A DNA stretch of 64,000 nucleotides from a virus. Location: positions 53,645 to 117,644 of IMG/VR virus record IMGVR_UViG_3300017989_000071, one strand, 5' to 3'. This document shows, piece after piece, positions 10,013-33,197 of this stretch. Position 1 is the stretch's first letter; the number at the start of each line of letters is the position of its first letter. The notes under the pieces are model-generated. The model was given only the letters and a program-made list of their open reading frames with translations, made no database searches and was not told where the DNA came from. Made by a program: the position numbers and the translations under genes.

Positions 10013-10119
10013 CGCTCACCTGTTTGTATCATGCAAGGTTCCGTGTCTTCCGTAACACAGGCGACCCACCGCCGAACGAGGAGTAAGTACGATGGGCCGC
10101 CCCACAAAAGGTAAGACCG

Positions 10120-15110: not shown

Positions 15111-15142
15111 TGCAAGGCTCCCTTCACTGCTTTGTGTGTAAA

Positions 15143-16494: not shown

Positions 16495-16499
16495 GTAAT

Positions 16500-16528
16500 A
16501 GCATACATACACCGTAGTACCTTGTCAA
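16500..16528 (-). promoter_or_regulatory. Sigma70-type promoter upstream of the structured RNA
   Basis: TTGACA (16528-16523), 17 bp, TATGCT (16505-16500). Confidence 0.65.
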
Positions 16529-16788
16529 CCCTGCCGCCCGTGCCGCTTCAGCAAGGCAGTCGCCCGCGCCACGAAGCACTCGTTCCTCGGCTGGCAATTA
16601 TGGGTCTGACAACACCCGTGGTGATCGTGGTGGTCGCACGGACCCTGCACCCGAACGACATCTTCGAGGATGTCCAGAGCGAGATTCAGCTCTCGGGTCG
16701 CATCCATCGCTCGACGATTCTCGGGGTGGACACAGGATTCCATGATCGCCCGCTCCTCCTTCTCTTCCCATATTGGCAGCTGCTTCAT
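16525..16788 (-). CDS. Hypothetical Cys/His-rich protein
   Basis: ATG 16788 overlaps the upstream TGA; CDHHDHHGCCQTHNC motif. Confidence 0.65.
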   Translation of the reverse strand: MKQLPIWEEKEERAIMESCVHPENRRAMDATRELNLALDILEDVVRVQGPCDHHDHHGCCQTHNCQPRNECFVARATALLKRHGRQG

Positions 16789-17420
16789 TTGGCACCCCGC
16801 TTCCACCACCGCTTCGGTAAGGGCGGATCGCTCGGCAGCGACTGGAGGGAAACCACGGACAGGCTGTGGAACACCGCGTCCTCCACCGCAACGACCTCCT
16901 GATACGGTTTCCGGAAAATCCGCTCGGTGAACCACCGCTTGATCCTGATCCACCGGCTATCGACCCGCTCGCTCTGCCGCATCCCGCAGGACAGGGACAG
17001 GGCGAACTTCGAGGAGGACTGCGAGATCGTCACCGGCTCTCCGTTGACCTCCTCGACCGTCGGCGGCTTCACGCTGTTCCACAGGGCGTCGCCGCCCGGC
17101 GTGCGCTCCACGTCGATCACCGCCTCGATACCCTTCTCCGTCACCACCAGCTCGGAGACCATCCCCGCCTTCGGCCACGGCTTCTCCCGCTGGCGGAACT
17201 CGACCCAGAGCTTTCCCTCCTCGATCTTCTCGGTCAGGCTGGGTTCGGAGACCATCTTTTCCATCGCCTCGGGCGTCAACCCACCGTTCACCGCTGGGAA
17301 AGCCAGATGTCCCAACGGCATGATGCAGGAAGTCAGCAAACGGCGACCGTCCTCGCTAGCGTCCACCCGGAACACCTTCCCCGCCGTCGGATCACGTCTC
17401 AGTGTTTTCGGGAACTTCAT
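16785..17420 (-). CDS. Hypothetical phage protein
   Basis: GGAGAAGAGG RBS before ATG 17420; coupled stop/start downstream. Confidence 0.65.
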   Translation of the reverse strand: MKFPKTLRRDPTAGKVFRVDASEDGRRLLTSCIMPLGHLAFPAVNGGLTPEAMEKMVSEPSLTEKIEEGKLWVEFRQREKPWPKAGMVSELVVTEKGIEAVIDVERTPGGDALWNSVKPPTVEEVNGEPVTISQSSSKFALSLSCGMRQSERVDSRWIRIKRWFTERIFRKPYQEVVAVEDAVFHSLSVVSLQSLPSDPPLPKRWWKRGAK

Positions 17421-17430
17421 CCTCTTCTCC

Positions 17431-17787
17431 TTACTTGTTGAACCAAACCACATGTGTCCATTCTCCCTTCGTCAACCACAGATCAGACGGGGCGAAGTGT
17501 ACCGAAGACATCTCGCTCTCCGTAGCATACCTCCCACAGCCGTCATCGTCCGTAAAGGCTCCAAACTCGACCGCCTGCTCAAACTCCTCAATGGTCATGT
17601 GAACACCGCAGTCTGGCAACGGCTCCATCAACAAATCGACACGAAACATCTCCGGATAGCGCACACGCATAACAGCCTCACGTAGAGCGTACTCACCGAC
17701 AAACTCTTCGACTCGACGTTCATACTTCCCGATAAAGCTGCCAGTCAGAATCGACCGCGCTCCTTGACTCAATTCACCGTCTTTCAT
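17431..17787 (-). CDS. Hypothetical phage protein
   Basis: GGAGGA RBS before ATG 17787. Confidence 0.65.
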   Translation of the reverse strand: MKDGELSQGARSILTGSFIGKYERRVEEFVGEYALREAVMRVRYPEMFRVDLLMEPLPDCGVHMTIEEFEQAVEFGAFTDDDGCGRYATESEMSSVHFAPSDLWLTKGEWTHVVWFNK

Positions 17788-17841
17788 TGTATCCTCCACT
17801 CACTGCAAGATTCCTATCCCGTTCTGGCACGGTTCATGCTT

Positions 17842-17999
17842 CGCGTGTGTGCGCGTACACGTGCGCGTAGTTATATTCCTACGTCTCATTCTCTGCGGTC
17901 CCCGACCGCCCGACCGACCCGACGAAGGAGGGAGGGCGGGAGGGGGTGGAGCGATAGCGGAACAGAGAGAGGGAAACTTGTTTCCCGCCCGCCCGCCCC
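17842..17999. other. Origin-like non-coding element (alternating purine/pyrimidine tract, CCGAC repeats, opposed G-quadruplex motifs, inverted repeat)
   Basis: The sequence features are directly visible in the intergenic gap next to the UvsW-like helicase; the origin function is inferred. Confidence 0.4.
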
Positions 18000-18027
18000 G
18001 GCACGCTAGCACGCGATTTCGAGATTG

Positions 18028-19599
18028 TCAATTCTCCCGTCTCCACCTCTTGCTGACCTCTATTGGAACATTCATCGAGACACCCGTTACAGGTTCCACT
18101 TTCAGTTGCGCATCGCGATAGGTCTTCAACCGCTTCAACGACTGAGAGCGGAGAACCCAATGCGTATTGTCTACGAAGTCGATAACGATGCAACGGTTAC
18201 CAATCGAACTGCCTTCCTTCAGTCTCATCCCACGTCCGAGTCGCTGGAGGAGCTGGCGAGGGTGTTTTCCTCCCGCCGCATAGACAATCACATTGATGCC
18301 GGAGATGTCAACACCTTCATCGAGGAAGGGGGTGGCGATGGAGATCGAATTTTCGTTTATATGATTAACTAATTTTTCGAGCTCCCATTTTTCCTTGTGG
18401 ATCGTTCCGTAGGAATTGACCAACACCTCCTTTGCCCCCTTGCACATGATCGCATCCTCGTACCCCTCGTCGATGAAGTGCTGGAGGAGCCGCCGACCGT
18501 GACGTTCGTGCTGGACGAAGATCACGACCGAGCAACCTTTGTCGTAGAAATTCTTCGCGGCGGATACGATAGCGAGGTTGCGGAGATGGTTCGAGCGGAC
18601 CCCCTGCTCGTAGAGGATATGCCAGTCGCGGATTCCGGCAGCGAGCTTCAACGGCACCTCGCCGGGGAGGGGAAGGTTGATCGCATCGATCTGGTAGGGG
18701 CGGATCACCGGCTCGGCGAGGATACCCCGCTGGATCAAAACCCACGAGGGCATCCGGTAGATGATCGGCCCGGTCATTCCCATGACCTGTAGCTCCTCCA
18801 CGGTCGGGTTGTCCATATCGGCAAAGGGGGTGGCGGATAGTCCAAATCGGTATCCGGCGGGGCACAGCAGGCCCGCCTCACCCCACCCCGGAGCTTTCAG
18901 GTGGTGGGCCTCGTCCCAAATCACCCCGTTCTGGCGGCTCAGGAGGGCCGTGACAGCCTTCGAGCCTCGTTTGAGGCCCACGGTAAGGGTTCGGTCGATT
19001 GCGACCGTCACAGGGCGATCTGACTGCTTCAGACCCCCTCCGTAGCCCCCAATCTCCTCCTCGGAGAACCCCCGATCCCGGAATCGACCGAGGGTTTGAT
19101 GGAGCAGTCGGTCGGTATTGACCACAAGGAGGACGTTGAAGGTCGGATATTGGATGAGATACCAGCGGACCATCGCAATCGCGATCTCCGTCTTCCCGGC
19201 CCCGGTTCCGGCCTGAATAATCCCTCGGCCCCGAGCGAGGGCCGTCTTGATCGCCCGGACCTGATAATCCCGCAGCGTCACCCCGGCGAGCTCCGGAACC
19301 TCGATCTGCCGGTAGTCGTTCGTCGGATCGTAATCCGGATGGTCCGGGTGCGGAGTCATTCGGACCTCGATCTTCTTCTCCTTCAGCAGCCGCTTCATCC
19401 GGGGGACCAGCCCCGACTGAAACCGTCCCTCGTCGTCGATCACGCAGACCTCGACCTTCTCCGGCTGCTTACCTCGCTCCTTCTGGACGAAGACGATGCC
19501 GGTGAATGCCTTCTCGGCCTGTTTGATCCCGCGCTGGGTGCCCCCCGTGATCCGGGAGAGCACCGGGCCGTACTCGACCTCGATCCAATCAATTCGCAT
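18028..19599 (-). CDS. Superfamily 2 DNA helicase (UvsW-like)
   Basis: LRDYQ, AGTGAGKT, WDEAHH, GLSATP, FLDEGVDI, QRLGRGMR. Confidence 0.9.
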   Translation of the reverse strand: MRIDWIEVEYGPVLSRITGGTQRGIKQAEKAFTGIVFVQKERGKQPEKVEVCVIDDEGRFQSGLVPRMKRLLKEKKIEVRMTPHPDHPDYDPTNDYRQIEVPELAGVTLRDYQVRAIKTALARGRGIIQAGTGAGKTEIAIAMVRWYLIQYPTFNVLLVVNTDRLLHQTLGRFRDRGFSEEEIGGYGGGLKQSDRPVTVAIDRTLTVGLKRGSKAVTALLSRQNGVIWDEAHHLKAPGWGEAGLLCPAGYRFGLSATPFADMDNPTVEELQVMGMTGPIIYRMPSWVLIQRGILAEPVIRPYQIDAINLPLPGEVPLKLAAGIRDWHILYEQGVRSNHLRNLAIVSAAKNFYDKGCSVVIFVQHERHGRRLLQHFIDEGYEDAIMCKGAKEVLVNSYGTIHKEKWELEKLVNHINENSISIATPFLDEGVDISGINVIVYAAGGKHPRQLLQRLGRGMRLKEGSSIGNRCIVIDFVDNTHWVLRSQSLKRLKTYRDAQLKVEPVTGVSMNVPIEVSKRWRREN

Positions 19600-20581
19600 T
19601 GGACACCTTCGCTTTCACCTCCTGAGCGAGCATGGTCGCACCGACAACCGCCCCCTGCTTCACATCGTCCCGGTGAGCCATCAGGATCGCCGAAACGAGC
19701 TGGAGCTTCGAGAGGAAGTTAGCCGCCACATCGCGGGCCTCCTCTTCGTACTCCCCTTTGTTGGACAGCAGATCGGACACCTGAGCCGGAGAAATCCCCG
19801 TTTCCGCATCGGCACCTATGATCTCGTTGATGGCCGTGTGCGCCTCGTTCAGGAGCTTGGCGGTAACAACCCCCAAGTCGTAGACCAGCTTGGCCCGTGT
19901 TACGTCGTCCGCCACATCGTCGATCCTCGACTCGTCAACCATCAGGTTCTCGTCGCACGGGAGCGGCACGTGTACCGGAACATGGTTGCCGCCGGGGCAG
20001 ATAATGTAGATGTAGGGGCTGGCCCCGTCCTTCGTCCTTGCCACCCCGAGCTGTCCCCCTTCAAGCAGCCCGTCAATCTGTTTGTGAACCTCTTCCCAAA
20101 TTGCATCGGCGACCTCTTCCTCGCTGAGCACGCGGTCGTCCGATTCGTTCGTGGAAGAATCCTCCCCCTCCGACGAGGAGTGCAAGGTTCCGGAGGGAGA
20201 GGTAGAAGAACGCTTCGCCGCCTGTTGGGCGGTTTTATTCATGTAGTAACGATCCTTGTTGATCCAGACCCGACCGTCGCGGGCGAGGTAGTGGATGCCC
20301 TTGGCGTCCCGCCCGTAGTAAGTCGCCCCGTAGGACACGATCTCGATCTCGATTCCCCACAAACCCAGCCCGTGATCCGGCGTACCGGGAGCCTGCCAGA
20401 ACAAGCCCTTCAGCCGTACCGCCTTCTTCGGGATTTTTCCAGCCTTCGTTTGGTTGAACGGCACTCGGCGGTAGAAGTGGGCGTAGCTTCCCCCGTCCTC
20501 ATGGGTTTCCCACATGACGATGATGGAGGGGGCTTCGTTGAAGCGGTCCCCCCGGAACGTAGTGTGTTTGGTAAAGGCCAT
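19589..20581 (-). CDS. Hypothetical phage protein (two domains joined by a Ser-rich linker)
   Basis: AACGAGGAGAG RBS before ATG 20581. Confidence 0.65.
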   Translation of the reverse strand: MAFTKHTTFRGDRFNEAPSIIVMWETHEDGGSYAHFYRRVPFNQTKAGKIPKKAVRLKGLFWQAPGTPDHGLGLWGIEIEIVSYGATYYGRDAKGIHYLARDGRVWINKDRYYMNKTAQQAAKRSSTSPSGTLHSSSEGEDSSTNESDDRVLSEEEVADAIWEEVHKQIDGLLEGGQLGVARTKDGASPYIYIICPGGNHVPVHVPLPCDENLMVDESRIDDVADDVTRAKLVYDLGVVTAKLLNEAHTAINEIIGADAETGISPAQVSDLLSNKGEYEEEARDVAANFLSKLQLVSAILMAHRDDVKQGAVVGATMLAQEVKAKVSNAN

Positions 20582-20595
20582 TGTTCTCTCCTCGT

Positions 20596-21051
20596 TCAGG
20601 AAGTCAGGGCGTTGGCCGGACGTTGCTCGGCTTTTTCCAATTCCCGGATCGCGCTCCGTTGCAGATCGGGGACGTAGCAATTCTCGTAGGGGTCCGTCGG
20701 ATCGTCGTAGATGCACATTCCGATGGAGTCCGCGTGTTCCCACTCCCCGGTAAACGGATCGAGGTACAGGGCGACCACAAACCAGCAGCCAAACCGCTCG
20801 ATCCATTCCTCGATTTCCTTCCGCTCCTCTTCCGGACTTACCCGGCGACCGTAGCCGTTGACGTACCCTTCCGGCTCGCCGTAGATCGACCAGTAGTTTT
20901 CGCATTCGGGGTCGGCGACGATCTTGACCCGGCCTTCCGCTTCGAGCTCCTCGAAGCGAGCGAGGGTCTTGGCGTTGCGGAGTGCCCACACCGCTTGGTC
21001 CCACCCGTACTCCCGAAAGTTGCGGTAGTATTTTTCGATTTTCGGATTCAT
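20596..21051 (-). CDS. Hypothetical phage protein
   Basis: GAGGAGAG RBS; coding-like composition. Confidence 0.7.
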   Translation of the reverse strand: MNPKIEKYYRNFREYGWDQAVWALRNAKTLARFEELEAEGRVKIVADPECENYWSIYGEPEGYVNGYGRRVSPEEERKEIEEWIERFGCWFVVALYLDPFTGEWEHADSIGMCIYDDPTDPYENCYVPDLQRSAIRELEKAEQRPANALTS

Positions 21052-21076
21052 CGTTCTCTCCTCGCTCGTTGCTGTA

Positions 21077-22447
21077 TCAGGCCACCTCGACGGCCTTGAA
21101 CTTGCAGCGGTTCACCACCGTCTGCTTCAGACCCTTGTACTCGCCGTGCGCCTTGACGGTCCCTGTCAGGATCACCTTCGTACCCTTGGGGGTGTCGTCC
21201 GGCGCACAGCCCGTCTTCCAGACCAGCACGTTTCCGTCCTCGGTCACGTAATTGTGGACGTAGAGCTCGCCGTAGGCGGTATCGAACGGACCGGACACGC
21301 GGTCGATGGTCACCTCCCACGACTCCCGCTTTCCCACCTCGCCGATATGCTCGGAGTGGGCCTTCTTCTCTTCCCACTCGGCCCGACGAACGCGGCTGAG
21401 GTAGGCACCGACCGCGCTCACCGCCAGACCCACCAGATTCCGGGGAATCAGGCTCAGGTTCGACACCACGGTCAGATTGTACTCGTAATCGTTCTCGGTC
21501 TCCGGGTCGATGCCCTCAACCCACTCCAGAACCTTCGCCGCCAGCTCACGGTCCTCGTCGCGGACCGGGGCGAAGGTGGAGACGTTAGCGGCCAGACGAT
21601 TGATCTCTTCGTTCCACTCGTTGACTGACTCCTTCAGGGCATCAAACGTCTCGGGCTTAACGGCATTGACATTGTTCCACACGTCCACGATAGCCCAACG
21701 ACGATTCGCGATTTTTTTGATGGCCGGGAGATAGGTCTTCTCGTTGAACTCCAGTAGGGAGAGGGTGTGGTTGCGGGTCGTATCGACATTGCGGTTGTCG
21801 AACTCCCACGCCGTCCGGGCGCGATCCAGATTGAAGTAGCCGCGCTGCTCACGAACCGAAGCAGCAGCAAAAGTCAAAACCTCCTCGAAGGTTCCAACGT
21901 AGTCCGCTTCTCGTTTGATGCGGCCACTGCCAAGAGCATAGCTCTCGTCGTCTTCAAGGCTTTCGGAGAGGGACCAGACTACCTCGGCCCACTTCGCGGC
22001 CTTGTGCGCATTGGCATCGCCGGTATAATCCTGCAAACATGTCGATCCGACTTGCTTCCGCTCACCATCCGAACCTTCAAGGATGAACGTGGCTTTGCGG
22101 CTCCGCTTCAGGTTGCAATGCTCGCAGCGTTCGGGGGTTTTGCGGTAGGGGCGGATGTCGCCAGCGTTCGCACCGCTGATAAAAACCGCATCATCCACCA
22201 CCCGGACCGATCCGATCACCGTCCAGTCGCCCAGCGGGGCGAGATCGGCGGTGACAGTTACGGCGTACAAACAAACCTCGTGCCGGAAACCGTCTTCATC
22301 TTCCACGATTTCGATAAGGGAATCACCGACTTCGTAACCCACAGGAGCAAAATTATACCTCACGGAACGGCGGTTGATGGCGTCGATCTTCTTCCTGAAA
22401 CCGGGTAGGTTCCGGGAATCGATTTTGTAGTCTTTCGTGATTTTCAT
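21077..22447 (-). CDS. Hypothetical phage protein with Cys motif (CEHC...C) and C-terminal OB-fold-like region
   Basis: AACGAGGAGAA RBS; C-terminus TGTVKAHGEYKGLKQTVVNRCK is OB-like. Confidence 0.7.
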   Translation of the reverse strand: MKITKDYKIDSRNLPGFRKKIDAINRRSVRYNFAPVGYEVGDSLIEIVEDEDGFRHEVCLYAVTVTADLAPLGDWTVIGSVRVVDDAVFISGANAGDIRPYRKTPERCEHCNLKRSRKATFILEGSDGERKQVGSTCLQDYTGDANAHKAAKWAEVVWSLSESLEDDESYALGSGRIKREADYVGTFEEVLTFAAASVREQRGYFNLDRARTAWEFDNRNVDTTRNHTLSLLEFNEKTYLPAIKKIANRRWAIVDVWNNVNAVKPETFDALKESVNEWNEEINRLAANVSTFAPVRDEDRELAAKVLEWVEGIDPETENDYEYNLTVVSNLSLIPRNLVGLAVSAVGAYLSRVRRAEWEEKKAHSEHIGEVGKRESWEVTIDRVSGPFDTAYGELYVHNYVTEDGNVLVWKTGCAPDDTPKGTKVILTGTVKAHGEYKGLKQTVVNRCKFKAVEVA

Positions 22448-22478
22448 CTCGTTCTCCTCGTTCTTCATTGTCAATCAT

Positions 22479-22507
22479 ATTATAATATCATTCGAGTACG
22501 TTGTCAA
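22479..22507 (-). promoter_or_regulatory. Early sigma70-type promoter with conserved spacer
   Basis: TTGACA-ACGTACTCGAATGATAT-TATAAT. Confidence 0.9.
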
Positions 22508-22524
22508 GCTCTTTTTTCGCGCAA

Positions 22525-22553
22525 TAAAAAAGCCGGGGAAATCCCGGCTTTTT
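22525..22553. terminator. Intrinsic terminator (possibly bidirectional)
   Basis: AAAAAAGCCGGG-GAAAT-CCCGGCTTTTT. Confidence 0.85.
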
Positions 22554-22574
22554 CGGTATCACCTCCTTCCCCTG

Positions 22575-23066
22575 TTACAGGATCGCTTCACCCGCCCGGA
22601 CCTTCTCGATCAGCGGCTTCAGGAACGACTCACGAGTCGGGCTGTCATCCCAACTGGACCGGTCCAGATCGCTGATTTCGCGAACGATGTGCTCGTCGTT
22701 GCAGGCGATCAGAATCGCCCGAACTTCGAGGGAGATGTCGCGGTATCCGGTATCTTCCTCGTCGAGGGTGTGGTACAGGTTCTTCCCTTTCCGATCCGTA
22801 AACTTCCCGTCATCCCCATAATCGCCACAGAGCACAATGCGGTTCCCCGCCCAGCGACCAGCGATATTGTTCTTCGGATGAAGGTTTTCGAGCTCGTGGA
22901 TGTCGCCCCCACCACGCCCGTTGCCGTCGGCCAGCAGAATCGCCAGCGCGGAGAGTAGCCCCCCGCTATTCGCAACCAGCTCCCACAGCTTCGCGCCGTC
23001 ACCCAAGGCCCACGCATTGAGGTATTCGTGCTTGTCGAGATTGGCTACCTTGTAGTATTGACCCAT
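22575..23066 (-). CDS. Hypothetical phage protein (MGQYY.. N-terminus)
   Basis: AACGAGGAGAA RBS; ends just before the terminator. Confidence 0.75.
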   Translation of the reverse strand: MGQYYKVANLDKHEYLNAWALGDGAKLWELVANSGGLLSALAILLADGNGRGGGDIHELENLHPKNNIAGRWAGNRIVLCGDYGDDGKFTDRKGKNLYHTLDEEDTGYRDISLEVRAILIACNDEHIVREISDLDRSSWDDSPTRESFLKPLIEKVRAGEAIL

Positions 23067-23118
23067 GATGTTCTCCTCGTTCTTCGGTTATCGTTTTGCC
23101 CCCGGACCGGCGCGGCGG

Positions 23119-23724
23119 TCAGGCCGCGCTGGATTCCGGAATCGGCTCCGCAAGAATCTCCACGATATTGCTGTGGGGAATCTTGTAATACGAAATTTTC
23201 TTGCCGTCCGCGTCGAGCGCGAACCCGAAGACCCGCGTCGTCGTCCGCTTCTTCCCGTTGCGGCACCGAGTCAACTTGTCGATGTCGCAGATCAGGAAAA
23301 CGGTGTGGGTGTACTTGTCCTTCAGGCGGACCCGCTGCCCGGCCTTCAAATCGCTCACCTTGACCTTGCGGCGTTTCGATTCGTGATAGGCCAACACCTT
23401 GTCGCGCCACTCCTGATTCGTGACCGGAGCCAGATCGAGCAACCGCTTCGGGCAGTTATAATAAAAGGGACCAGCCGCCTCGTCGATGTCCTTGTAGCCC
23501 CAGCGGCCCCCGCTCTTGCGAAGCAGGTAGAGGATCAGAAACCGCTCGGCCTCGTCCTCGATTCCGGTCGCCTTGTCGAAACGGCCCCAGACCACCCACA
23601 GGTGGGAGCCGACCAGCGATTTATCGACGACCTTGCGGAAGTAAGGACGATCCAACGGCTCCCACGAGCGCGTCACCTCGTCGATCACTTCCTGCTTCGT
23701 TTCATGTCCAAAAAGCCATCCCAT
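23119..23724 (-). CDS. Hypothetical phage/MGE protein (WGYKDIDEAAGPFYYNCP motif)
   Basis: AACGAGGAGAA RBS downstream of promoter 23760-23788. Confidence 0.75.
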   Translation of the reverse strand: MGWLFGHETKQEVIDEVTRSWEPLDRPYFRKVVDKSLVGSHLWVVWGRFDKATGIEDEAERFLILYLLRKSGGRWGYKDIDEAAGPFYYNCPKRLLDLAPVTNQEWRDKVLAYHESKRRKVKVSDLKAGQRVRLKDKYTHTVFLICDIDKLTRCRNGKKRTTTRVFGFALDADGKKISYYKIPHSNIVEILAEPIPESSAA

Positions 23725-23759
23725 GTTATTCTCCTCGTTCTTCGTTATCGTCTAATCAT

Positions 23760-23788
23760 ATTATAATATCATTCGAGTACGTTGTCAA
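23760..23788 (-). promoter_or_regulatory. Early sigma70-type promoter with conserved spacer
   Basis: TTGACA-ACGTACTCGAATGATAT-TATAAT. Confidence 0.9.
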
Positions 23789-24107
23789 GAGCTTCCTCCT
23801 CGGCTTTTCGGTCCGCTGCATCTTCTCGTTGTTCTTTTCGGCGAATAATCTCACGTATTTTATCGTCATCCGGTATTCCGTGGTGGTGGGAAATAATATC
23901 CCATGTAGCTTGTTCCGGATATCCTGCTTCCCGCATCGCCCGGAAAAACTTATCCCGGTCTGGTTTTGGGTCTATCTGCCGCAGCGGAATTTCAATATCG
24001 TATCTCCTTGGAGAGGGGAGACCACCACAATCCTTATCAAAACGAGTGTTTTGATGCCGTCGGAGACCGTCGCCTCGTTTGATATAGGTCAGCGCATCGT
24101 AAGGCAT
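23769..24107 (-). CDS. Hypothetical protein, visibly lower GC, C-terminus encoded by the next promoter
   Basis: ATG 24107; the last codons L-D-N-V-L-E-stop are CTT GAC AAC GTA CTC GAA TGA. Confidence 0.55.
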   Translation of the reverse strand: MPYDALTYIKRGDGLRRHQNTRFDKDCGGLPSPRRYDIEIPLRQIDPKPDRDKFFRAMREAGYPEQATWDIISHHHGIPDDDKIREIIRRKEQREDAADRKAEEEALDNVLE

Positions 24108-24139
24108 GGCTATTTCTTTGTTCGCATATGATCCTCTCC

Positions 24140-24961
24140 TTAGTATCCGAACCGTTCGGCTTGGGCGGCCTCCTGCGGACAGGGACCGGGATCGACGTGG
24201 GCCAACTCCTTCGGCACCTTCGGGAGCGGCTTCCAGCAAGTCGGCGTGGACAATTTACACTCCTCCTCGTGGTCGATCCACCACGGCTCCGCGTCGCTGC
24301 CGATGAACTCGAAGTACCGCACGACCCGGTATTCCTTGCTGCGGGCGAAGTAGGCCAGCACGGGATCGCTGTCCTTGACCTTGGTTTCCTCACCCCGGAC
24401 GTGTCGCGGGATCGGAACCGAGACCTCGGGCTTGCGCCACTCCTCCAGCTCCTTCAACCGGTTCTTCAGCTCGGGGTAGGACGGCTCCGGGTTGGCATGG
24501 GGATCGAAGCCCCAGCCGTTCCGCTGCGATCCGCGCTTCGGGTCGAAGGTCACCCGGTCGATGACGTACTCGACGCTGTTGTGGATGTGGTCACCGTAGT
24601 AGTCGGCGTTGAATCCCCAATACTTCCGCTTGTTGCCGACACGCCCTTTCAACTTCCCCCCGAGACCGAGCAGGATATGCCCCTCGGAAACGGTGTAGGT
24701 CAGATCGAAGTAGGAATACCCGTCGTACCCACCGTACTCGTCCATGTCATGATGGCTGGCCGAAATGACCACCGCCGTCACGAAGCACTTCTCGTCGTGG
24801 CTCAGCAGATCGAAGTATTCATCGGTAGAGCACAGCCCCCGGCCCTTGATCCGGATGCCGATCCCCTCGCACGAGAACCCCCCGCCACCGATCTGATCGT
24901 ACAGAGCGTTGATGATCTTGTGGTTCAAGAGGTGTACTTGAAAGGTGCGAATGCTGTTCAT
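24140..24961 (-). CDS. Hypothetical phage protein
   Basis: AACGAGGAGAA RBS before ATG 24961. Confidence 0.7.
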   Translation of the reverse strand: MNSIRTFQVHLLNHKIINALYDQIGGGGFSCEGIGIRIKGRGLCSTDEYFDLLSHDEKCFVTAVVISASHHDMDEYGGYDGYSYFDLTYTVSEGHILLGLGGKLKGRVGNKRKYWGFNADYYGDHIHNSVEYVIDRVTFDPKRGSQRNGWGFDPHANPEPSYPELKNRLKELEEWRKPEVSVPIPRHVRGEETKVKDSDPVLAYFARSKEYRVVRYFEFIGSDAEPWWIDHEEECKLSTPTCWKPLPKVPKELAHVDPGPCPQEAAQAERFGY

Positions 24962-24984
24962 GTCGTTCTCCTCGTTCAAATTGT

Positions 24985-25233
24985 TTATTCGGCGAAGGAT
25001 TCCCCGAGCAACGCCTCGAAGAATGCCACCCGTGCCTCGGCTCGATGTTTCATCTCTTCCGCCAGTAGCTTGAACATCCTCCCCCGCAAAATCTCTTTTT
25101 TGTATTCCGGACCACCGGACTTCAGCACCTCCTCGTACTCCGGGAGGTACCGCTCTTCGTACTCCCGAGCGGATTCGCGAGCGAGAGCGAGGTGGCCTTC
25201 GACCTTCTCGATTTCCTTGGCAGTCATTGTCAT
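24985..25233 (-). CDS. Hypothetical helical protein
   Basis: AACGAGGAGAA RBS downstream of promoter 25263-25291. Confidence 0.7.
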   Translation of the reverse strand: MTMTAKEIEKVEGHLALARESAREYEERYLPEYEEVLKSGGPEYKKEILRGRMFKLLAEEMKHRAEARVAFFEALLGESFAE

Positions 25234-25262
25234 TCTCCTCGTTCGTTGTCATTGCTAATCGT

Positions 25263-25291
25263 ATGATAATACCTTTCGAGTACGATGTCAA
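25263..25291 (-). promoter_or_regulatory. Early sigma70-type promoter with conserved spacer
   Basis: TTGACA-TCGTACTCGAAAGGTAT-TATCAT. Confidence 0.88.
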
Positions 25292-25321
25292 GAAAAAAAA
25301 AGCCGGGGTCGATCCCCGGCC
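25292..25321 (-). terminator. Intrinsic terminator
   Basis: GCCGGGG-ATCGA-CCCCGGC followed by a T-run. Confidence 0.85.
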
Positions 25322-25325
25322 TCTT

Positions 25326-25616
25326 CTACTTGAGATATTCGTCTGCGTACCGGGACCAGTCCTCGTAGCTCAGGGTCTTGGCCCACCCCCGACAACCCTC
25401 CTCACTGGCCCATAGCCAATCGGCGAACTGGAAGGAGGTGGTGGCCGTCTGGTACTTGGCCCGGCTCTTCGAGATCACTTCGAGCTTCACCTTCTTCCTG
25501 CCGATGGCGATCACCTGACCGTGCCGGACCCGTGCGCCGTGGCGGGGGTCGTACCCCCCACCCACCCACCAGACCTTCAGGCCGGGGCGCACCTCTTGAT
25601 TGTCTCTCGTCTGCAT
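25326..25616 (-). CDS. Hypothetical phage protein (beta-rich, SH3/KOW-like)
   Basis: GGGAGG RBS; ORF track. Confidence 0.65.
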   Translation of the reverse strand: MQTRDNQEVRPGLKVWWVGGGYDPRHGARVRHGQVIAIGRKKVKLEVISKSRAKYQTATTSFQFADWLWASEEGCRGWAKTLSYEDWSRYADEYLK

Positions 25617-25630
25617 CGTGGTCTACCTCC

Positions 25631-25954
25631 CTAGTTGTGCTTAATCGAGTACGTCACCCGCTCGACGGTGAAACCGCTGTCCGGGTTGTTCGGATACTTC
25701 TTCTTCGTCTCCACCTTCCGGACGATCTTCATGCCCGGCTGGAAGTCGAACTCGTTCTCGTCCCGGTTGTGGGGCGACACTCGCGGCTCGACGTAGCCGC
25801 CCCCGAAACTGATCGTTACCGCCCAACGGTTAGCGAGCAACACGTGCTCCTCGCCGCGCCTCTCGATCCGGAACGGCCAGTCGTGTTTCCCGAGTAAGCG
25901 GGAGCCGCACAGCGGGTCGTTCAGGATCATCGTTTCGGTCTTGGGATTCTTCAT
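25631..25954 (-). CDS. Hypothetical phage protein
   Basis: AACGAGGAG RBS before ATG 25954. Confidence 0.65.
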   Translation of the reverse strand: MKNPKTETMILNDPLCGSRLLGKHDWPFRIERRGEEHVLLANRWAVTISFGGGYVEPRVSPHNRDENEFDFQPGMKIVRKVETKKKYPNNPDSGFTVERVTYSIKHN

Positions 25955-25988
25955 TTTTGTCTCCTCGTTCAGGTTGACAGGTACTCGT

Positions 25989-26017
25989 ATTATACCACGA
26001 TTCGAGTACGATGTCAA
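25989..26017 (-). promoter_or_regulatory. Early sigma70-type promoter with conserved spacer
   Basis: TTGACA-TCGTACTCGAATCGTGG-TATAAT. Confidence 0.88.
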
Positions 26018-26020
26018 GCT

Positions 26021-26058
26021 AAAAAAAAAAGCCCGCCGACTTTGGGGAGCCGACGGGC
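26021..26058 (-). terminator. Intrinsic terminator ending the small RNA
   Basis: GCCCGTCGGCT-CCCCAA-AGTCGGCGGGC followed by T10. Confidence 0.85.
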
Positions 26059-26101
26059 TTTGTCTGTTCGTGCGGATGGGGTCCGCACCGGAACCTTGCA
26101 C
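26021..26101 (-). ncRNA. Putative ~80-nt small RNA (own promoter and terminator, no ORF)
   Basis: Promoter 26135-26107, single-stranded 5' end GUGCAAGGUUCC, hairpin 26088-26070, terminator 26058-26021. Confidence 0.7.
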
Positions 26102-26106
26102 CGAAT

Positions 26107-26135
26107 ATGATAATCCGATGCGTTTTCGTTGTCAA
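26107..26135 (-). promoter_or_regulatory. Sigma70-type promoter of the small RNA
   Basis: TTGACA (26135-26130), 17 bp, TATCAT (26112-26107). Confidence 0.8.
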
Positions 26136-26143
26136 CTCAACGA

Positions 26144-26176
26144 GAGCGGCCCGGCGGGGTTACCGCCGGGCCGCTC
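26144..26176. repeat. Perfect 14-bp GC-rich inverted repeat
   Basis: GAGCGGCCCGGCGG-GGTTA-CCGCCGGGCCGCTC. Confidence 0.9.
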
Positions 26177-26236
26177 CCACGGGGGTTAATGGATTTTAGT
26201 CCATCAGGGGTCTTTCGAGCGGAATGTGGGAACCCG

Positions 26237-27052
26237 TCAGGCGGCGGCTTCTCCGAACTCGTAAATCAGGCCGAGCCGCGTGAACAGCATCTTGCCGTAA
26301 TTCGAGCTGGGAACGGCCACCCCCTCGAAGACGAAGGGCACCTGTGGACGTTTGCGGAGCTGGCTGAACCCGATGCCGATCTTCCCCATCGACACCTTCG
26401 ATCCGATCTTGTCGAGCTTCCCGTTGCGGTCGAGGAGGGACACGTTCGAGCCGTCGCCGAAGACGGCGGCTTCCTGTCGGTAGTCTTTGACCAGCCCGGC
26501 GATCAGATCGCGGAAGTCGGCCACGTCCATCCCCTTCGGCATCGGCACCCACAAGCTGTCCTCCACCGAGTCGGTTACGATCCCCTGACGGATCGCTTCC
26601 GCCTTGGAAATCGTCTCCCCGGTCGGGAGGACAAACTTCGCATCCCCCTTGTCCGTGAGCTCGATGTCGATCACCCCGTCGGGTCCGTTCAGGACCAGCT
26701 TACCGAGCGAATCGTTCCACTCGTTCTTGTACGGGGGAACGCCCTCGATCCAGTGCCCGACCAACCGGGCCGCGCCCGCCTTCAGCGCGTTCAACCGCTG
26801 GATCAAATCGCGGTTCTGCCCGACGTTCGCCCTTCGCGAAACCGCCTTCCCGAACTCGTCGGTGTTTTTGAACGCCGTGAGGATCGCAAAGGGCTGTTTC
26901 GACTGGCGGAAGATGCGGGACAGGCTCGCCTCGTCGATTCGACCGAGGCAGGAACGAACATACTCGTTGTCGTCCTCGTTCGCCCCACGGATACGGGCCA
27001 ACTCCTGCTCGATCTTTTCGTCCGCTTCGAGCAAGGTTCGTTTATCGGTCAT
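26237..27052 (-). CDS. Hypothetical phage protein (EASLSRI...FAILTAF motif)
   Basis: GGAGG RBS; downstream of promoter 27089-27117. Confidence 0.75.
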   Translation of the reverse strand: MTDKRTLLEADEKIEQELARIRGANEDDNEYVRSCLGRIDEASLSRIFRQSKQPFAILTAFKNTDEFGKAVSRRANVGQNRDLIQRLNALKAGAARLVGHWIEGVPPYKNEWNDSLGKLVLNGPDGVIDIELTDKGDAKFVLPTGETISKAEAIRQGIVTDSVEDSLWVPMPKGMDVADFRDLIAGLVKDYRQEAAVFGDGSNVSLLDRNGKLDKIGSKVSMGKIGIGFSQLRKRPQVPFVFEGVAVPSSNYGKMLFTRLGLIYEFGEAAA

Positions 27053-27088
27053 GCAGACCTCCTTCCTGCGACATGAATCGCGCTACGA

Positions 27089-27117
27089 ATCATATACCGT
27101 CTTACGTCGTTTGTCAA
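27089..27117 (-). promoter_or_regulatory. Sigma70-type promoter
   Basis: TTGACA (27117-27112), 17 bp, TATGAT (27094-27089). Confidence 0.7.
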
Positions 27118-27899
27118 GCTTCGTGGATCAGGAGGAACGACCACCGATTCACGGATACGTTCTCGGAAAAAGCCCTCGGCAGGATGGGCATCCATTGATG
27201 ATCGGTCATTCCCCCACGGTTCGGAGAGTAGATCACCCGGACCCGATTCTGGTCAATCGCGTCGAGGATCGGTGTCGTTGGGAGGACCGGATAGGCCATT
27301 CGCATCGCGGCGAGGTTCTTCAACCCCTTCTCGATCCGCTTTTGGCTGGCCTGTCGGAGATACTTCTTCCGCCACTGGATGATCGGACCGCGATCCTTCG
27401 GTTTGATTTCCGTCAGATCGCCGCCCCAGCACTTCCCCTCTTCGGCCATCATGCCGAAAGTCATTAACGCATCGAGGAACGGGTCCAGACTGACCGGATC
27501 GTTGAAGGCGTGGTACATCACTGTCGCCAGCTCGGGAGATACCCCGAGGAGAGGCAGGCGCAGCGCGTAGGTGTTGACCAAATGCTCCCACGGATACCCC
27601 TCGTGGTTGAGAAGCCACGGCAGGTAAAGCTTGAGGTGCCCGGAGAGCCGCGCCGCGATCCAATGGTTTTCGGCTATCGTAACCGGCTTCCCGTTCGGCA
27701 CCGGATACTCGATGTTCCCCGAGCGATAGATACGGTCGAGAGCTTCGAGGATATGCCTGCCGAGGCGGTCTTCATCTTCATCGTCGTAGATGTCGAGATC
27801 ACCCCCGAGAACCTTTCCCAAGAGCTCCAACTGCTCCCGCCACCCCGACTTCTGCATCGTCGTCCGGAACGTGTTTGCCGTCATTCGGTCGCTCATCAC
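27114..27899 (-). CDS. Hypothetical phage protein
   Basis: ORF track; GGAGG RBS. Confidence 0.65.
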   Translation of the reverse strand: MMSDRMTANTFRTTMQKSGWREQLELLGKVLGGDLDIYDDEDEDRLGRHILEALDRIYRSGNIEYPVPNGKPVTIAENHWIAARLSGHLKLYLPWLLNHEGYPWEHLVNTYALRLPLLGVSPELATVMYHAFNDPVSLDPFLDALMTFGMMAEEGKCWGGDLTEIKPKDRGPIIQWRKKYLRQASQKRIEKGLKNLAAMRMAYPVLPTTPILDAIDQNRVRVIYSPNRGGMTDHQWMPILPRAFSENVSVNRWSFLLIHEA

Positions 27900-28194
27900 T
27901 TCCTCCCTGACTAATGATCGTACACCCCGTTCGGCTCACGAAGCCGATGTTCCTGTCGATGCCGTGTTTCTCGTCCAAATTCTGCATCTCGTCGATAGCG
28001 TTGGCGGCATCGTTCAACAGCAAAACTAACTTCGGAAGGTCGTCCGGGCGGTAGTGGGCATCCCTGCGCCACGCGCCCCGGACCACGCGCCAGATCACGG
28101 TGTCGTAGTATACCTGATCCGGATGCGGATTTCGATAGACCACGACCGCGACGTAGCGATCCTTGAATAATTTGACGGCATTATCTCCGAGCAC
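27799..28194 (-). CDS. Hypothetical protein (3' end overlaps the next gene by ~100 nt)
   Basis: Fills the gap after the head morphogenesis gene; N-terminal ~95 aa look coding. Confidence 0.5.
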   Translation of the reverse strand: MLGDNAVKLFKDRYVAVVVYRNPHPDQVYYDTVIWRVVRGAWRRDAHYRPDDLPKLVLLLNDAANAIDEMQNLDEKHGIDRNIGFVSRTGCTIISQGGSDERPNDGKHVPDDDAEVGVAGAVGALGKGSRG

Positions 28195-29131
28195 GCTTCT
28201 TTACCTTTCGTCGATCTTTCAGGATGCGGCGGATCATCGTCTGCGACTTCCGATTCCGCCGGAATGTTTGCTTGTACTTCGCCGGGGTGGCGTCCTCGAA
28301 ACGCAACCGGCAGCGGCAGTTATCTAAACATCTCGTGAGTCCGGCCTTCGGGGTTGTCGGGAGTCTGGACTTCACATACGGCGAGCTGCGCCACAGGGTC
28401 TTACAATCCGGGCAGGCTTTCCGATCTTCGAGAATCCAGTGAATCACCGTGTTTGGGGGAACGACCATCACCCGGCCCGCGTGGAAGATCGAATTGACGG
28501 TCTTCACGTATCGCCCCAACCGCTTCTCGACCGACTGGCGAGAGCGATCCTTGGCGATGTCCTTGATGAGGCGGTTGAAGTATTTGAACTCGTGCTTGAT
28601 CGCGGAATCGACCCACTGCCGGTCGTCCGGCTGAAGGTCAACCAACTTCGCCTTCCTCAATCCGGGAATCCCCGACGCTCTCACCCCAAGGATGAACGCA
28701 CCGAGGTAGGCGGTCTTCAACTGTGCCTTCGCCCGCTCGCTGAACTGGCGCAGCGAGAACTCCCCGCCCTGATACTGGCGGTAGAGCTTGACCAACTGCC
28801 CTTCGAGCAGATCGAGCCGCTTCTTCATCGACCGGGACGATGAAGTAGTCGCGGAGTGTCGAATCTTTTTGAGCGCATCCCCGTAGAAGGATCGCGCTCC
28901 GGCGGCGGTGAGGCTGTGGGCGACCATATCGCCCTTCAGCGATCCGAGGTACTTGGCCTCGATGATCTGCCGCAGGTTGAGGAGCACATCGACGACAATT
29001 ACATCGACGGCTCCCTGATCCGGATCGAGATCGAGCTCGGAGACAACGTATTCCCGCAGATCGTCGAGGATCGCGGCATCAACGGTGTCGCCGTCCCAAA
29101 CCCAATCATAGGTCTTCGTCGCCCTCGGCAT
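28181..29131 (-). CDS. Head morphogenesis protein (SPP1 gp7 / Mu gpF-like)
   Basis: Follows the portal; C-terminal W...CPDC...P...C..NCRCRL motif. Confidence 0.75.
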   Translation of the reverse strand: MPRATKTYDWVWDGDTVDAAILDDLREYVVSELDLDPDQGAVDVIVVDVLLNLRQIIEAKYLGSLKGDMVAHSLTAAGARSFYGDALKKIRHSATTSSSRSMKKRLDLLEGQLVKLYRQYQGGEFSLRQFSERAKAQLKTAYLGAFILGVRASGIPGLRKAKLVDLQPDDRQWVDSAIKHEFKYFNRLIKDIAKDRSRQSVEKRLGRYVKTVNSIFHAGRVMVVPPNTVIHWILEDRKACPDCKTLWRSSPYVKSRLPTTPKAGLTRCLDNCRCRLRFEDATPAKYKQTFRRNRKSQTMIRRILKDRRKVKKRARR

Positions 29132-30995
29132 CTTCTTCCTCGGGATCGACGTACTCTCGGAGATGTTTCATATTGACCCGGCCCGGCGTTTGGTTTCGGC
29201 GCGGACGGGGGCGTTCACCGCCTTCTCCATCGCCCTTCACCTCGGCTACCAGCTCGCGGATCGCTTTCGACAATGCCTCACGAAGAGCCTGCTTGTCGAT
29301 CTGCGTTTCTTCCCCCTCTTCCCCGGTCTCGATGCTTTGTTCCATCTCTTTCCCGAAGCGTTTGAGCTCATCCGCCGACAAACCAACCACGTTTGTCAGG
29401 ATGTAGATGCGCCACGTTACCGGATCGAGGCCGAACTGGTCGCCCATTTCGAGCATCCGCTGCGCCACGTCGAGCTTGGTCTCCATCGCTTCGAGCCGCT
29501 GAAGGAGCTCGATCTGCGACGGTTCGACCATCCGCAACTTGAACGATCCGACGATCTGGGACGCCTTCTCCGCGATCTGCATGAAGATACTCTCGGTATC
29601 GACGCGGACTTCCTTCCCGTTCGATTCGTAAAGCACCTCCTCGGGAACGGCGTCGAGGTGGCCCCGAAGAATCTTTTCCCACAGCTCATCCCCGATTCCA
29701 TACTGCTCCTTGATACTCGGTACGATGTCGCGGAGCAGGAGGTGGATTTCGCACAGCGTTGTCAGGCCGGTGATAATCGCCCGCTGAATTTTCTTGACCC
29801 CTCGGGCGAAGCGCACGTCCTGCGAGCTCAGGGTGTTCGCCGCATCCACATCCCCTTCGTATCCGAAATAGGCTTTCGGAGCTCGCAGACCGGCGAAAAG
29901 TTTATTGATGAAATTGTCGTAATCGACCGCATCGGTGACCGAACCGGCAGCGGGTAGTACATCGACGCGGCTGTTCTGGCGATCTCCACGTACAGGATAG
30001 AAAATATCGTCGTCAAACGACATAGGGTTGTAGAGAACATCGAACTCTCCGGTCAGGGGATTCTTGAACTCCCGCTTCTTCATCGCGAGTCGCCAAGTCC
30101 GCAAGGTCTCGGTGACTTGCGCCGGGCTGGAGGTGGGACCGACATCGACGTAGTAGATGAACCGATCCACGGATTTCGTGAGTCGGTAGATCATCATCAA
30201 CTCTTCGAGCAGGCGGACCTGCTTGCCGGTGCGTTCGACGTTGTAGAGGAGGGAGGTGCCGTAGATGTAGGGATCGAGGCCGGGGTCGTTGTACTTCCAC
30301 TTCTTCGTCTTGCGCGAGTAGATGCGGAAGTGAATGATGTCCCACGCCATCCACAGGTCTTCTTCATCGACCGTGGTGGCCGCGAGGTTGTCGAGCAAGG
30401 CAAACCCGTAGAGATTGCCCCGTTCGTCTTCGACCCGTTCGACCATTCGGGGATCGAGCCACTGGATATTCAGGATGCCGTCCGCGCTGTTCGGATCGTA
30501 ATGGTTCCGCATAAAGTCGTCGCCGTTCTGCGCGACATCGTGCGCCAGACCCTCGATCCACTCTTCGACATTGATCGTATCGAAGAGCTGATGGATCGCG
30601 GTGACGACCTTCTTCTCCTCGGACTCGGCCCAGACAGTCCGTTGCTTGTCCTGATTGAACTGCGTGGCGTCTTCCGCATAGCCATCGAGCACGGAACCGA
30701 TCTCGGGAACCCGGCTGATCTCCTCGTAGATGTTATACATCTTGATTCGATCCGCCGACGTTTCCATGTACTGCGCGTACTTCAGGAACCAGTTTTTCGA
30801 GAGCAAGCCATCACCGCCGAAGACGGCACCCGCCATCCCCATATTGGATTGCGGGGAGTCAGGACCAGAGACCGGCGGGGGTGCCTGCTTGGCCTTCCCG
30901 CCGAAGAGATCGAACAGCGAACCGAGACGCCCTTTCGGCCTGTCGGTCGAGTAGGTGCCCTGCGGCACAACGATTTCGATGACTTGCTTATCCAT
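29106..30995 (-). CDS. Portal protein (T4 gp20-like)
   Basis: YEEISRVPEI...YAEDA, MIYRLTKS.DR.IYYVDVG, DDIFYPVRG...VDVLP, LFAGLRAPK. Confidence 0.9.
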   Translation of the reverse strand: MDKQVIEIVVPQGTYSTDRPKGRLGSLFDLFGGKAKQAPPPVSGPDSPQSNMGMAGAVFGGDGLLSKNWFLKYAQYMETSADRIKMYNIYEEISRVPEIGSVLDGYAEDATQFNQDKQRTVWAESEEKKVVTAIHQLFDTINVEEWIEGLAHDVAQNGDDFMRNHYDPNSADGILNIQWLDPRMVERVEDERGNLYGFALLDNLAATTVDEEDLWMAWDIIHFRIYSRKTKKWKYNDPGLDPYIYGTSLLYNVERTGKQVRLLEELMMIYRLTKSVDRFIYYVDVGPTSSPAQVTETLRTWRLAMKKREFKNPLTGEFDVLYNPMSFDDDIFYPVRGDRQNSRVDVLPAAGSVTDAVDYDNFINKLFAGLRAPKAYFGYEGDVDAANTLSSQDVRFARGVKKIQRAIITGLTTLCEIHLLLRDIVPSIKEQYGIGDELWEKILRGHLDAVPEEVLYESNGKEVRVDTESIFMQIAEKASQIVGSFKLRMVEPSQIELLQRLEAMETKLDVAQRMLEMGDQFGLDPVTWRIYILTNVVGLSADELKRFGKEMEQSIETGEEGEETQIDKQALREALSKAIRELVAEVKGDGEGGERPRPRRNQTPGRVNMKHLREYVDPEEEDAEGDEDL

Positions 30996-32632: not shown

Positions 32633-33197
32633 GCAAGTCTCCGTTGAGCAAGGTTCCACGACCGCACGGAACGTCGTCACCCTCGATGGCGAAGAATACG
32701 TCGATGCGGCCCTCGGGACACGCTTTCGGATCGGCGGCGAGCTGACCCTTGCCGCCCGATAATATCACATATCCCTCGAAGACGGTAACCCATTCGTCCC
32801 GAAACCCTCGAACGAGGATCGCTCCGTTGGCATCGGCTACGAGATTTCCCTCGAAGTCGCAGGCGCGGAGCTGCATTTCCTTGTCTTTTCCGACCTCCAG
32901 ATCGCCCCCAACTTTGATTTTGTAGAACGCACCCGGCTCCCACCGCTTCCATGCTCCATCCTCGTAGTACATCTCCCGGAGCAGAGAGATCAGCGAAGAG
33001 GTGGTAAATTCTCCTTCGGTCAGCGTCGGCGAGATCACGGACGGAAAGAGACGCTTCATATCGGCAAGCGAGTACGTCACCGATTTTTCGTCTTCTCCTA
33101 ATGCGTACTTCGACGTACCGGGAGGGAGGGTCGCCACCGCAGAAGCAACCCGTCTCCCGGCCCGCCGAACAGTTTCTATACTAACTAACGGTCCCAT
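32445..33197 (-). CDS. Hypothetical virion-associated protein (3' 188 nt overlap the endolysin)
   Basis: Coupled to the large tail protein; function unknown. Confidence 0.55.
   Translation of the reverse strand: MGPLVSIETVRRAGRRVASAVATLPPGTSKYALGEDEKSVTYSLADMKRLFPSVISPTLTEGEFTTSSLISLLREMYYEDGAWKRWEPGAFYKIKVGGDLEVGKDKEMQLRACDFEGNLVADANGAILVRGFRDEWVTVFEGYVILSGGKGQLAADPKACPEGRIDVFFAIEGDDVPCGRGTLLNGDLHVQRKTRPDSSGRNNGCPFPVALQGGGNVGPAGFISAQGGSVASGVGMGNRGGRGPLPHRPR

Follow-up and report, generated by a model that had tools for sequence, protein, structure and literature searches.

A candidate trans-acting small RNA whose 5′ seed is complementary to translation starts of its own phage genome

The 64,000-nucleotide (nt) stretch of DNA analysed here (the window) comprises bases 53,645-117,644 of the 117,644-bp IMG/VR virus record IMGVR_UViG_3300017989_000071, a phage genome of ~59% GC in which the minus strand carries all genes; coordinates refer to the window unless marked "genome". 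At 26135-26021 a promoter leads into a strong intrinsic terminator with no open reading frame (ORF) between them, and the first nucleotides of the RNA predicted from this unit are complementary to a motif repeated at translation starts of the same genome. On balance, we favour reading the unit from its sequence as a phage-encoded trans-acting base-pairing small RNA (sRNA) with a regulon in its own genome.

An orphan promoter-terminator unit

A first-pass annotation of this DNA, made from the letters alone, had proposed a phage regulatory sRNA of about 80 nt at this locus. The elements of the unit are as follows.

26107..26135, minus strand: sigma70-type promoter P26135 (11/12), with -35 TTGACA at 26135-26130, a 17-nt spacer and -10 TATCAT at 26112-26107
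26021..26101, minus strand: predicted RNA of ~78-81 nt, with its putative 5′ end at G26101-G26099 (6-8 nt past the -10) and its 3′ end within the T10 run
26090..26099, minus strand: seed GCAAGGUUCC, in the single-stranded 5′ tail, with an opening cost of ~2.5 kcal/mol
26070..26088, minus strand: hairpin 1, GUGCGGA / CCCCA / UCCGCAC, 7 bp, with a weak 4-bp extension (26094-26091 with 26069-26066)
26021..26061, minus strand: intrinsic terminator, stem-loop 26061-26028 of 14 bp (8 GC) with loop CCCCAA, followed by T10 at 26030-26021

The near-consensus promoter lies exactly where the first-pass annotation had placed it. Searching the window for TTGACA-N16-18-TATNAT returned nine sites, all nine on the minus (coding) strand, against 0.02 expected, and relaxing the -10 to TANNNT gave 14 promoter sites genome-wide, likewise confined to the coding strand. 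This excess and the coding-strand bias indicate that the sites are real promoters of the phage early programme. P26135 is the only one of the nine to be followed by a terminator instead of an ORF. We infer that transcription from it would start at G26101-G26099, of which G26101, U26100 and G26099 are nucleotides 6-8 after the -10, and would end in the T10 run.

The T10 terminator, likewise borne out with its 14-bp stem, is the strongest of the ~3-4 canonical intrinsic terminators that a scan of the 117.6-kb genome found on the coding strand. Folding the 83-nt stretch 26101-26019 reproduced the architecture drawn in the first-pass annotation, with nt 1-7 unpaired, then hairpin 1, a linker of 4-8 nt and the terminator hairpin; the minimum free energy (MFE) was -38 kcal/mol (z = -5.44), which none of 200 shuffles equalled. 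Ten U residues after the 14-bp stem also give the RNA the tail of at least 6-7 U after the 3′ hairpin that is typical of Hfq-dependent sRNAs, and the linker GAACAGACAAAG beside the terminator holds just two ARN triplets, as read by eye.

Inspection of the reading frames found no usable ORF in the ~80-nt unit, in agreement with the first-pass annotation. A 38-amino acid (aa) frame begins at the TTG of the -35 box, 5′ of any transcription start, and a GTG frame at 26101 has no Shine-Dalgarno (SD) sequence and continues through the terminator and the next promoter. In silico, the unit therefore has the make-up of an independent transcription unit as known for trans-acting sRNAs: a promoter, a Rho-independent terminator and no ORF with an SD. 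It is present once in the genome. In the Rfam search that had been suggested as a check, no family of Rfam 15, which covers phage C4 antisense RNA as well as sRNAs and leaders, reached its gathering score in any part of the window, which assigns the unit to no known family; in a permissive scan of 25900-26300 the best overlaps reached 12.8-22 bits against cut-offs of 41-60, which is chance level. ARAGORN found no tRNA or tmRNA gene in the window.

The seed matches a sharply defined motif at translation starts

When each 9-mer of the RNA was scanned for Watson-Crick (WC) complements on the mRNA strand, only nt 3-12 stood out, with 6 complements each against ~0.45 expected; the linker and loops, treated as alternative seeds in the same scan, gave 0-4 each, which is not notable. 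The complement of nt 3-12, GGA(A/G)CCTTGC, occurs seven times on the mRNA strand of the 117.6-kb genome and once on the other strand, the latter being the sRNA itself. Markov models of order 0-5 predict 0.23-0.78 copies, so that P(>=7) lies between 5e-9 and 2e-5. One-mismatch neighbours of the motif number only 0-3 each, and the motif is thus sharply defined; its core is bounded by G26099, inside the predicted start 26101-26099, and by C26090, just before hairpin 1.

Five of the seven exact sites lie no more than 31 nt 5′ of start codons that were verified by ORF and SD, and the -40..+3 zone in which they fall makes up 5.5% of the genome. GGAACCTTGC is the top non-SD 10-mer enriched in this start zone. 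With G-U pairs allowed, the real seed has six matches in translation-initiation regions (TIRs), compared with a mean of 0.16 for composition-matched shuffled seeds, of which 3 in 20,000 reached six (p 1.5e-4). Where the TIR sites differ from one another, most changes keep the pairing through wobble (two of A>G opposite U, one of C>U opposite G), and net seed-target interaction energies range from -12 to -22 kcal/mol. The complementarity of the 5′ seed to several of the phage's own TIRs, as the first-pass annotation had read it, thus held up, and in silico an accessible seed with more complementary sites at the TIRs of several mRNAs than chance predicts is present, as in a trans-acting sRNA.

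The other pairing mode put forward in that annotation did not hold. The annotation had noted that C-rich loops, as in RNAIII, can pair with SD sequences, but counts of 5-8-mers complementary to the two loops showed no enrichment within the -25..+3 zones and, if anything, depletion, with 0-2 observed against 0.04-6.8 expected; the SD sequences of this phage are of the GAGGAG type. What remains of the proposed regulatory sRNA is accordingly its layout and its 5′ seed, both supported in silico, without the loop pairing.

As a separate matter, the motif was considered as a late or middle promoter and rejected: it is absent from the structural-gene blocks and no -10-like element follows it (read by eye), and three copies lie inside 5′ untranslated regions (5′UTRs) of sigma70-type promoters.

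Predicted target sites and mode of action

The sites complementary to the seed are listed below.

10033..10042, minus strand: DNA primase 5′UTR, GGAACCUUGC, -30..-21 from ATG 10012; pairing extends to 13 bp with the flanks (duplex -24.2 kcal/mol), and the stretch is accessible
start at genome 45269: DinG/Rad3-like helicase 5′UTR, motif at -28..-19
32633..32657, minus strand: endolysin (amidase_2 plus PG-binding) 5′UTR, GGAACCUUGC at 32657-32648, -25..-16 from ATG 32632
32642-32633, minus strand: second, imperfect endolysin copy GGAGACUUGC, covering the SD
15112..15121, minus strand: 94-aa gene, GGAGCCUUGC (one G-U), from the SD to 2 nt before ATG 15110
start at genome 36554: 219-aa gene, motif in a register identical to that of the 94-aa gene, GGAGCCUUGCAAUG, including SD and ATG
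17805..17814, minus strand: 118-aa gene 5′UTR, GGAAUCUUGC, ATG 17787; fully paired via one G-U, the sixth TIR site
27031..27040, minus strand: 271-aa gene directly 5′ of the sRNA, 9-nt match (C)GAACCUUGC at codons 5-8
position +73 of a terminase-like gene: internal exact site
20180..20193, minus strand: longest match, 14/14, CCGGAACCUUGCAC, inside gene 19589-20581

The 94-aa gene lies 5′ of the DnaB-like helicase gene and overlaps it by the ORF calls. For three of the target genes a dedicated sigma70-type promoter lies 10-80 nt 5′ of the motif, which places the motif within transcribed 5′UTRs. The 14/14 site is exposed in the 16-nt loop closing a 13-bp hairpin, whose sequence codes for a Ser/Glu-rich linker; a match of this length is expected ~4e-4 times per strand (117,644/4^14), and the site is possibly a decoy or an internal regulatory site.

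These positions suggest how the RNA might act. Host RNA polymerase with sigma70 would initiate at G26101-G26099 and stop at the T10 terminator, releasing an RNA whose first ~10-13 unpaired nt (GCAAGGUUCC) would form a single seed ahead of two hairpins, the second of which, with the long U tail, would provide stability and possibly a chaperone-binding site. In the infected cell the seed would pair with GGA(A/G)CCUUGC in the 5′UTR or ribosome-binding site (RBS) of no fewer than six mRNAs of the phage itself, namely those of the primase, the DinG-like helicase, the 94-aa, 219-aa and 118-aa genes and the endolysin, and also with the one internal site displayed by a hairpin. Initiation is classically blocked by pairing that covers the stretch from SD to start codon. 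Two sites, those of the 94-aa and 219-aa genes, span this interval, and the others, 5-15 nt 5′ of the SD, fall within the ribosome footprint or at its border, so that translational repression or delay of replication and lysis functions is the likely effect; provided that the pairing is real, we hold this direction with fair assurance. Activation by remodelling of a leader could also occur, for example where modelling predicts a sequestered SD, as in the primase mRNA.

The primase leader merits description in its own right. It extends over 10005-10120 (minus strand; ~108 nt from the promoter at 10148-10120) and folds with an MFE of -43.4 kcal/mol (z = -2.0); in the predicted structure the 5′ end of the leader pairs with, and so sequesters, the leader's own SD (GGUGAG), and the motif is unpaired beside this SD. 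The same leader contains a second type of word, CUCCUCGU, the complement of the early-cassette RBS ACGAGGAG, which has 26 copies on the mRNA strand. Genome-wide, the mRNA strand has just three copies of the anti-RBS word itself, and two of these lie in large apical loops of strong hairpins: one at 10074-10083 (minus strand) in a primase-leader hairpin with the full 10-mer CUCCUCGUUC and a 14-bp stem, and one at 20173-20181 (minus strand) in the hairpin within gene 19589-20581, directly adjacent to the match to the sRNA seed. Such loops may form a second RNA-RNA layer acting on early-gene ribosome-binding sites.

The distribution of the sites also bears on the idea that the 10-mer is a binding site for a protein, either a DNA operator, in which case the copy at +3..+12 of P26135 would be an inverted operator, or an mRNA site for an RNA-binding protein such as a CsrA-like one. 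Three sites do lie 10-80 nt 3′ of sigma70-type promoters, the motif includes the GGA core bound by CsrA/RsmA family proteins, an ACGGA hairpin loop adjoins the motif in the primase leader, and the phage encodes a CsrA-like protein of 97 aa (3010-3303, minus strand; Pfam CsrA E 9.8e-6, 25.9 bits, just under the cut-off of 27). However, the 7:1 strand use and the two sites in identical SD/ATG register (GGAGCCUUGCAAUG) indicate function at the RNA level, and the motif is non-palindromic and has no repeat partner. CsrA, moreover, needs GGA in a loop and not a conserved 10-mer, and the base before the GGA varies; a protein site on mRNAs would also give no reason to expect its complement at the 5′ terminus of an orphan transcript. 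We regard a protein site as distinctly unlikely.

That the predicted targets are replication genes could instead point to an RNA that primes or activates a replication origin, as short promoter-proximal transcripts do at the T4, T7 and ColE1 origins. Yet the locus shows no AT-rich unwinding region, iterons or skew change, the RNA stops at an efficient terminator, and the complements located in TIRs would be left unexplained, all of which makes an origin transcript extremely improbable.

The phage and its single distant relative

The phage encodes a T4-type portal, a family-A DNA polymerase fused to a UDG domain, a DnaB-like helicase and a primase, and its tail proteins include baseplate J and a P2-I-like protein; the completeness of the IMG/VR record is estimated at 91%. 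Among cultured phages the nearest portal is that of Rhodothermus phage RM378, at 29% identity, and the best portal match among 5.8 billion proteins is 51-52% identical. Near-identical copies of the phage occur in sediment and seawater metagenomes from four studies, and the sequencing runs listed for them are all of DNA. The portal identities and the metagenome occurrence together identify the phage, by its sequence, as a deep-branching uncultured myovirus.

Relatives are correspondingly scarce. A blastn comparison with 50,697 phage records gave no match; IMG/VR, queried with the neighbouring 271-aa protein, the phage's own portal, the portal of the relative described below (P0007), hairpin-1 DNA and the cassette-promoter word, yielded no relative, the eight matches to the last being single and at chance level. 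JGI metagenomes queried with the 271-aa protein and GTDB genome contigs queried with the portal likewise returned none. The single distant relative consists of two ~14-kb JGI metagenome contigs (about 24 kb), found via their portal, which is 51% identical to that of the phage. In it the portal is followed, with order conserved, by the 131-aa homologue, the 260-aa homologue, a terminator and a promoter, and the 96-aa homologue lies farther along. In this relative (L012:8769-8900), a block homologous to 28194-27114 ends in a terminator hairpin, AAGCCCCCGGAACCUGAUUUUCCGGGGGUUU, and an 11/12 promoter (TTGACA-17-TAGAAT) follows 70 nt after it, a similar junction with no sRNA between. The start of its endolysin gene bears a GGAG-N-CTTG-N-ATG resemblance to the motif only.

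Four metagenome DNA assemblies covering 9901-29900 proved near-clonal, with five single-nucleotide polymorphisms and a few indels, none of them in the sRNA or its targets, and therefore carry no covariation information. The variation among them falls at 25292, 25560, 29305, 29322, 19906 and 22911; at 25292 one run (X5) has an AA insertion, just 5′ of the -35 of the promoter at 25291.

The surrounding cassettes and the weight of the evidence

The unit sits in a cassette-rich region in which promoters repeatedly follow terminators. The following feature separates it from the 271-aa gene upstream.

26144..26176, minus strand: GC hairpin, a perfect 14-bp stem with no U tract, located after the 271-aa gene (stop at 26237) and before P26135

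The probable role of this hairpin is to end or stabilise the upstream mRNA and to insulate the unit. On the other side, four bases past the T-run, begins the promoter of the next cassette, a 12/12 match with an extended -10 TG at 26017-25989. Over 12066-26017 (minus strand) six consensus promoters share the common spacer CGTACTCGAA and lead to GAACGAGGAGAA-type ribosome-binding sites, and three of the six stand directly 3′ of intrinsic terminators (22531, 25301 and 26030). Metagenome contigs break at these repeated cassette promoters.

The promoter at 26017-25989 matters for one alternative, in which P26135 drives a leader whose transcripts are meant to pass the terminator under an antiterminator, as from lambda PR′ through tR′ with Q, leaving the 80-nt RNA as a terminated by-product. 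The arrangement of promoter, short structured leader, strong terminator and genes is indeed that of the antitermination units known from lambda late control, and lambda 6S is such a product (10.1101/2024.10.31.621285). With a perfect extended -10 promoter directly after the terminator, however, the downstream genes need no read-through, and no antiterminator and no nut-, qut- or put-like element was identified, the Rfam scans included. We therefore consider an attenuated leader very unlikely.

The junctions bear more directly on whether the RNA acts in trans at all. The T10 terminator might end the 271-aa cassette, with P26135 a degenerate cassette promoter that has no ORF, or the RNA might be a constitutive transcript like lambda 6S; either way its complementarity would be coincidental. 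P26135 is in fact a diverged copy of the phage's repeated cassette promoter (73% identity over 30 nt), and the linker CGAACAGACAAAG, read by eye, resembles the TIR of the downstream gene, GAACGAGGAGACAAAA, minus the SD. Terminator-then-promoter junctions occur elsewhere in the region, at 25301/25291 and 22531/22507, so the T10 terminator could also end the transcript of the 271-aa gene and P26135 could be an internal promoter.

Several considerations accordingly weigh against a trans-acting sRNA. As at the two other junctions, the T10 terminator may primarily serve the upstream 271-aa gene, and a promoter ~100 nt 5′ of a terminator is not very improbable by itself. The distant relative, over the about 24 kb examined, lacks the orphan unit, the seed and the motif even though the flanking synteny is kept, so that the element may be young or lineage-specific. 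As to the statistics, the seed window and the TIR zone were picked after the data had been seen, and nulls built from the genome's own 10-mers are weaker than those above, with 0.15% of positions having at least five exact antisense copies and 0.36% at least six WC/GU TIR matches (p ~0.002-0.004 per 10-mer), figures dominated by palindromic or G/U-rich words. At a threshold of -20 kcal/mol, 5 of 13 mRNA-strand duplex sites lie near starts. Finally, four of the six sites lie 5′ of the SD, where repression is less certain.

Nevertheless, a relic or by-product fails to account for the identity between the predicted 5′-terminal 10 nt and the complement of the top non-SD start-site motif, and likewise for the 14/14 match at 20193-20180. 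The junctions also differ in kind: the gap from stop codon to terminator is at most ~25 nt at 25301 and 22531, compared with ~200 structured non-coding nt at the sRNA unit, which argues for a dedicated insert. We consider a transcript without function in trans unlikely, and retain the trans-acting sRNA as our preferred interpretation.

Two genes 3′ of the sRNA lies a gene for a 96-aa protein (25326-25616, minus strand), with a homologue of 46-50% identity in the distant relative (L012:11775-12032) and two homologues among 1.8 billion representatives. Its AF2 model (pLDDT 78) is a small beta-barrel with two helices, and matches in the PDB are weak (E >= 0.04), to eL21, Agenet, MBT and chromo-barrel folds. 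A role as a ProQ-like chaperone was considered and dropped, as the Pfam match to Phage_ProQ_C_like reached only E 0.005, under the cut-off and too weak as evidence.

Comparison with known small RNAs

In its layout the candidate resembles Hfq-dependent sRNAs of enterobacteria such as RybB and OmrA/OmrB, which are also ~80 nt long, have their own sigma-dependent promoter, an internal hairpin and a Rho-independent terminator with a long U tail, and use an unpaired 5′-terminal seed (~10-16 nt in those RNAs) on many mRNAs at or near their ribosome-binding sites. It differs in being phage-encoded, in that its predicted targets are phage genes and in having no Rfam match in sequence or structure.

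Type-I 3′UTR sRNAs such as DapZ and MicL offer another parallel, since they too lie just 3′ of a coding gene, with an internal promoter and the terminator at the end of the locus. In the candidate, by contrast, both the stop codon and a distinct 14-bp GC hairpin precede the promoter, which makes the unit more insulated from the upstream mRNA.

Among phage RNAs, P1/P7 C4 and P4 CI are likewise small and block expression by acting at several short stretches of complementarity within transcripts of their own phage. Unlike the candidate, with its own promoter and linear 5′ seed, they are processed from the transcript that bears the target, display their pairing sequences in loops and serve lysogenic immunity; the C4 family stayed below the Rfam gathering score everywhere in the window.

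To our knowledge, few trans-acting sRNAs encoded by phages have been found; nearly all belong to temperate phages that infect model hosts, and most have been described through host targets. Lambda PreS/LPR1 and VpdS of vibriophage VP882 are phage-borne Hfq-type base-pairing sRNAs that tune replication-related functions, and VpdS acts on both phage and host mRNAs (PMC12197685; 10.1101/2024.10.31.621285). The candidate would share with them the trans action of a phage-encoded RNA, its regulon having been read only from repeated perfect 10-nt matches in the phage genome. PreS and VpdS, by contrast, were discovered by experiment in temperate phages whose hosts are cultured, and their best-known targets are host genes (dnaN, alaS). 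Lambda 6S, a transcript from promoter to terminator (PR′ to tR′) with Hfq-linked targets (PMC12197685; 10.1101/2024.10.31.621285), is similar in being short and in running from a strong promoter straight into a terminator; it is the leader of the late operon, extended by Q, whereas the genes downstream of the candidate have their own consensus promoter after the terminator. What would set the candidate apart is the combination of a deep-branching uncultured T4-core-type myovirus with a regulon in its own genome that can be read from perfect, repeated seed matches.

Implications for the lytic programme

Taken further, and only tentatively, the sequence might describe a virulent T4-core-type phage with an RNA regulon of its own, made up of one early sRNA, a hairpin-displayed decoy and a second, CUCCUCGU-based anti-RBS set, in which CsrA-like and Tudor/SH3-like proteins possibly join. 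In such a regulon the 10-nt 5′ seed of the sRNA would co-ordinate translation of the primase, the DinG-like helicase, the 94-aa gene and the endolysin, the loop-displayed CUCCUCGU would face the ribosome-binding sites of the early cassettes, and the CsrA-like protein and the Tudor/SH3-like protein encoded two genes 3′ of the sRNA might take part. This would amount to a phage-internal post-transcriptional timing circuit of a kind not described for lytic phages.

The short 5′UTRs of the targets and the small size of the sRNA make the claim testable in a heterologous host without culture of the phage. If it is right, orphan promoter-terminator units whose 5′ end is complementary to an over-represented non-SD start-site motif would offer a general way to search for sRNAs. 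The unit would then be an sRNA of a deep-branching uncultured myovirus whose targets can be recognised directly in the genome by recurring perfect matches to the seed, and it would point to RNA-based timing of the lytic programme, acting at the starts of replication and lysis genes.

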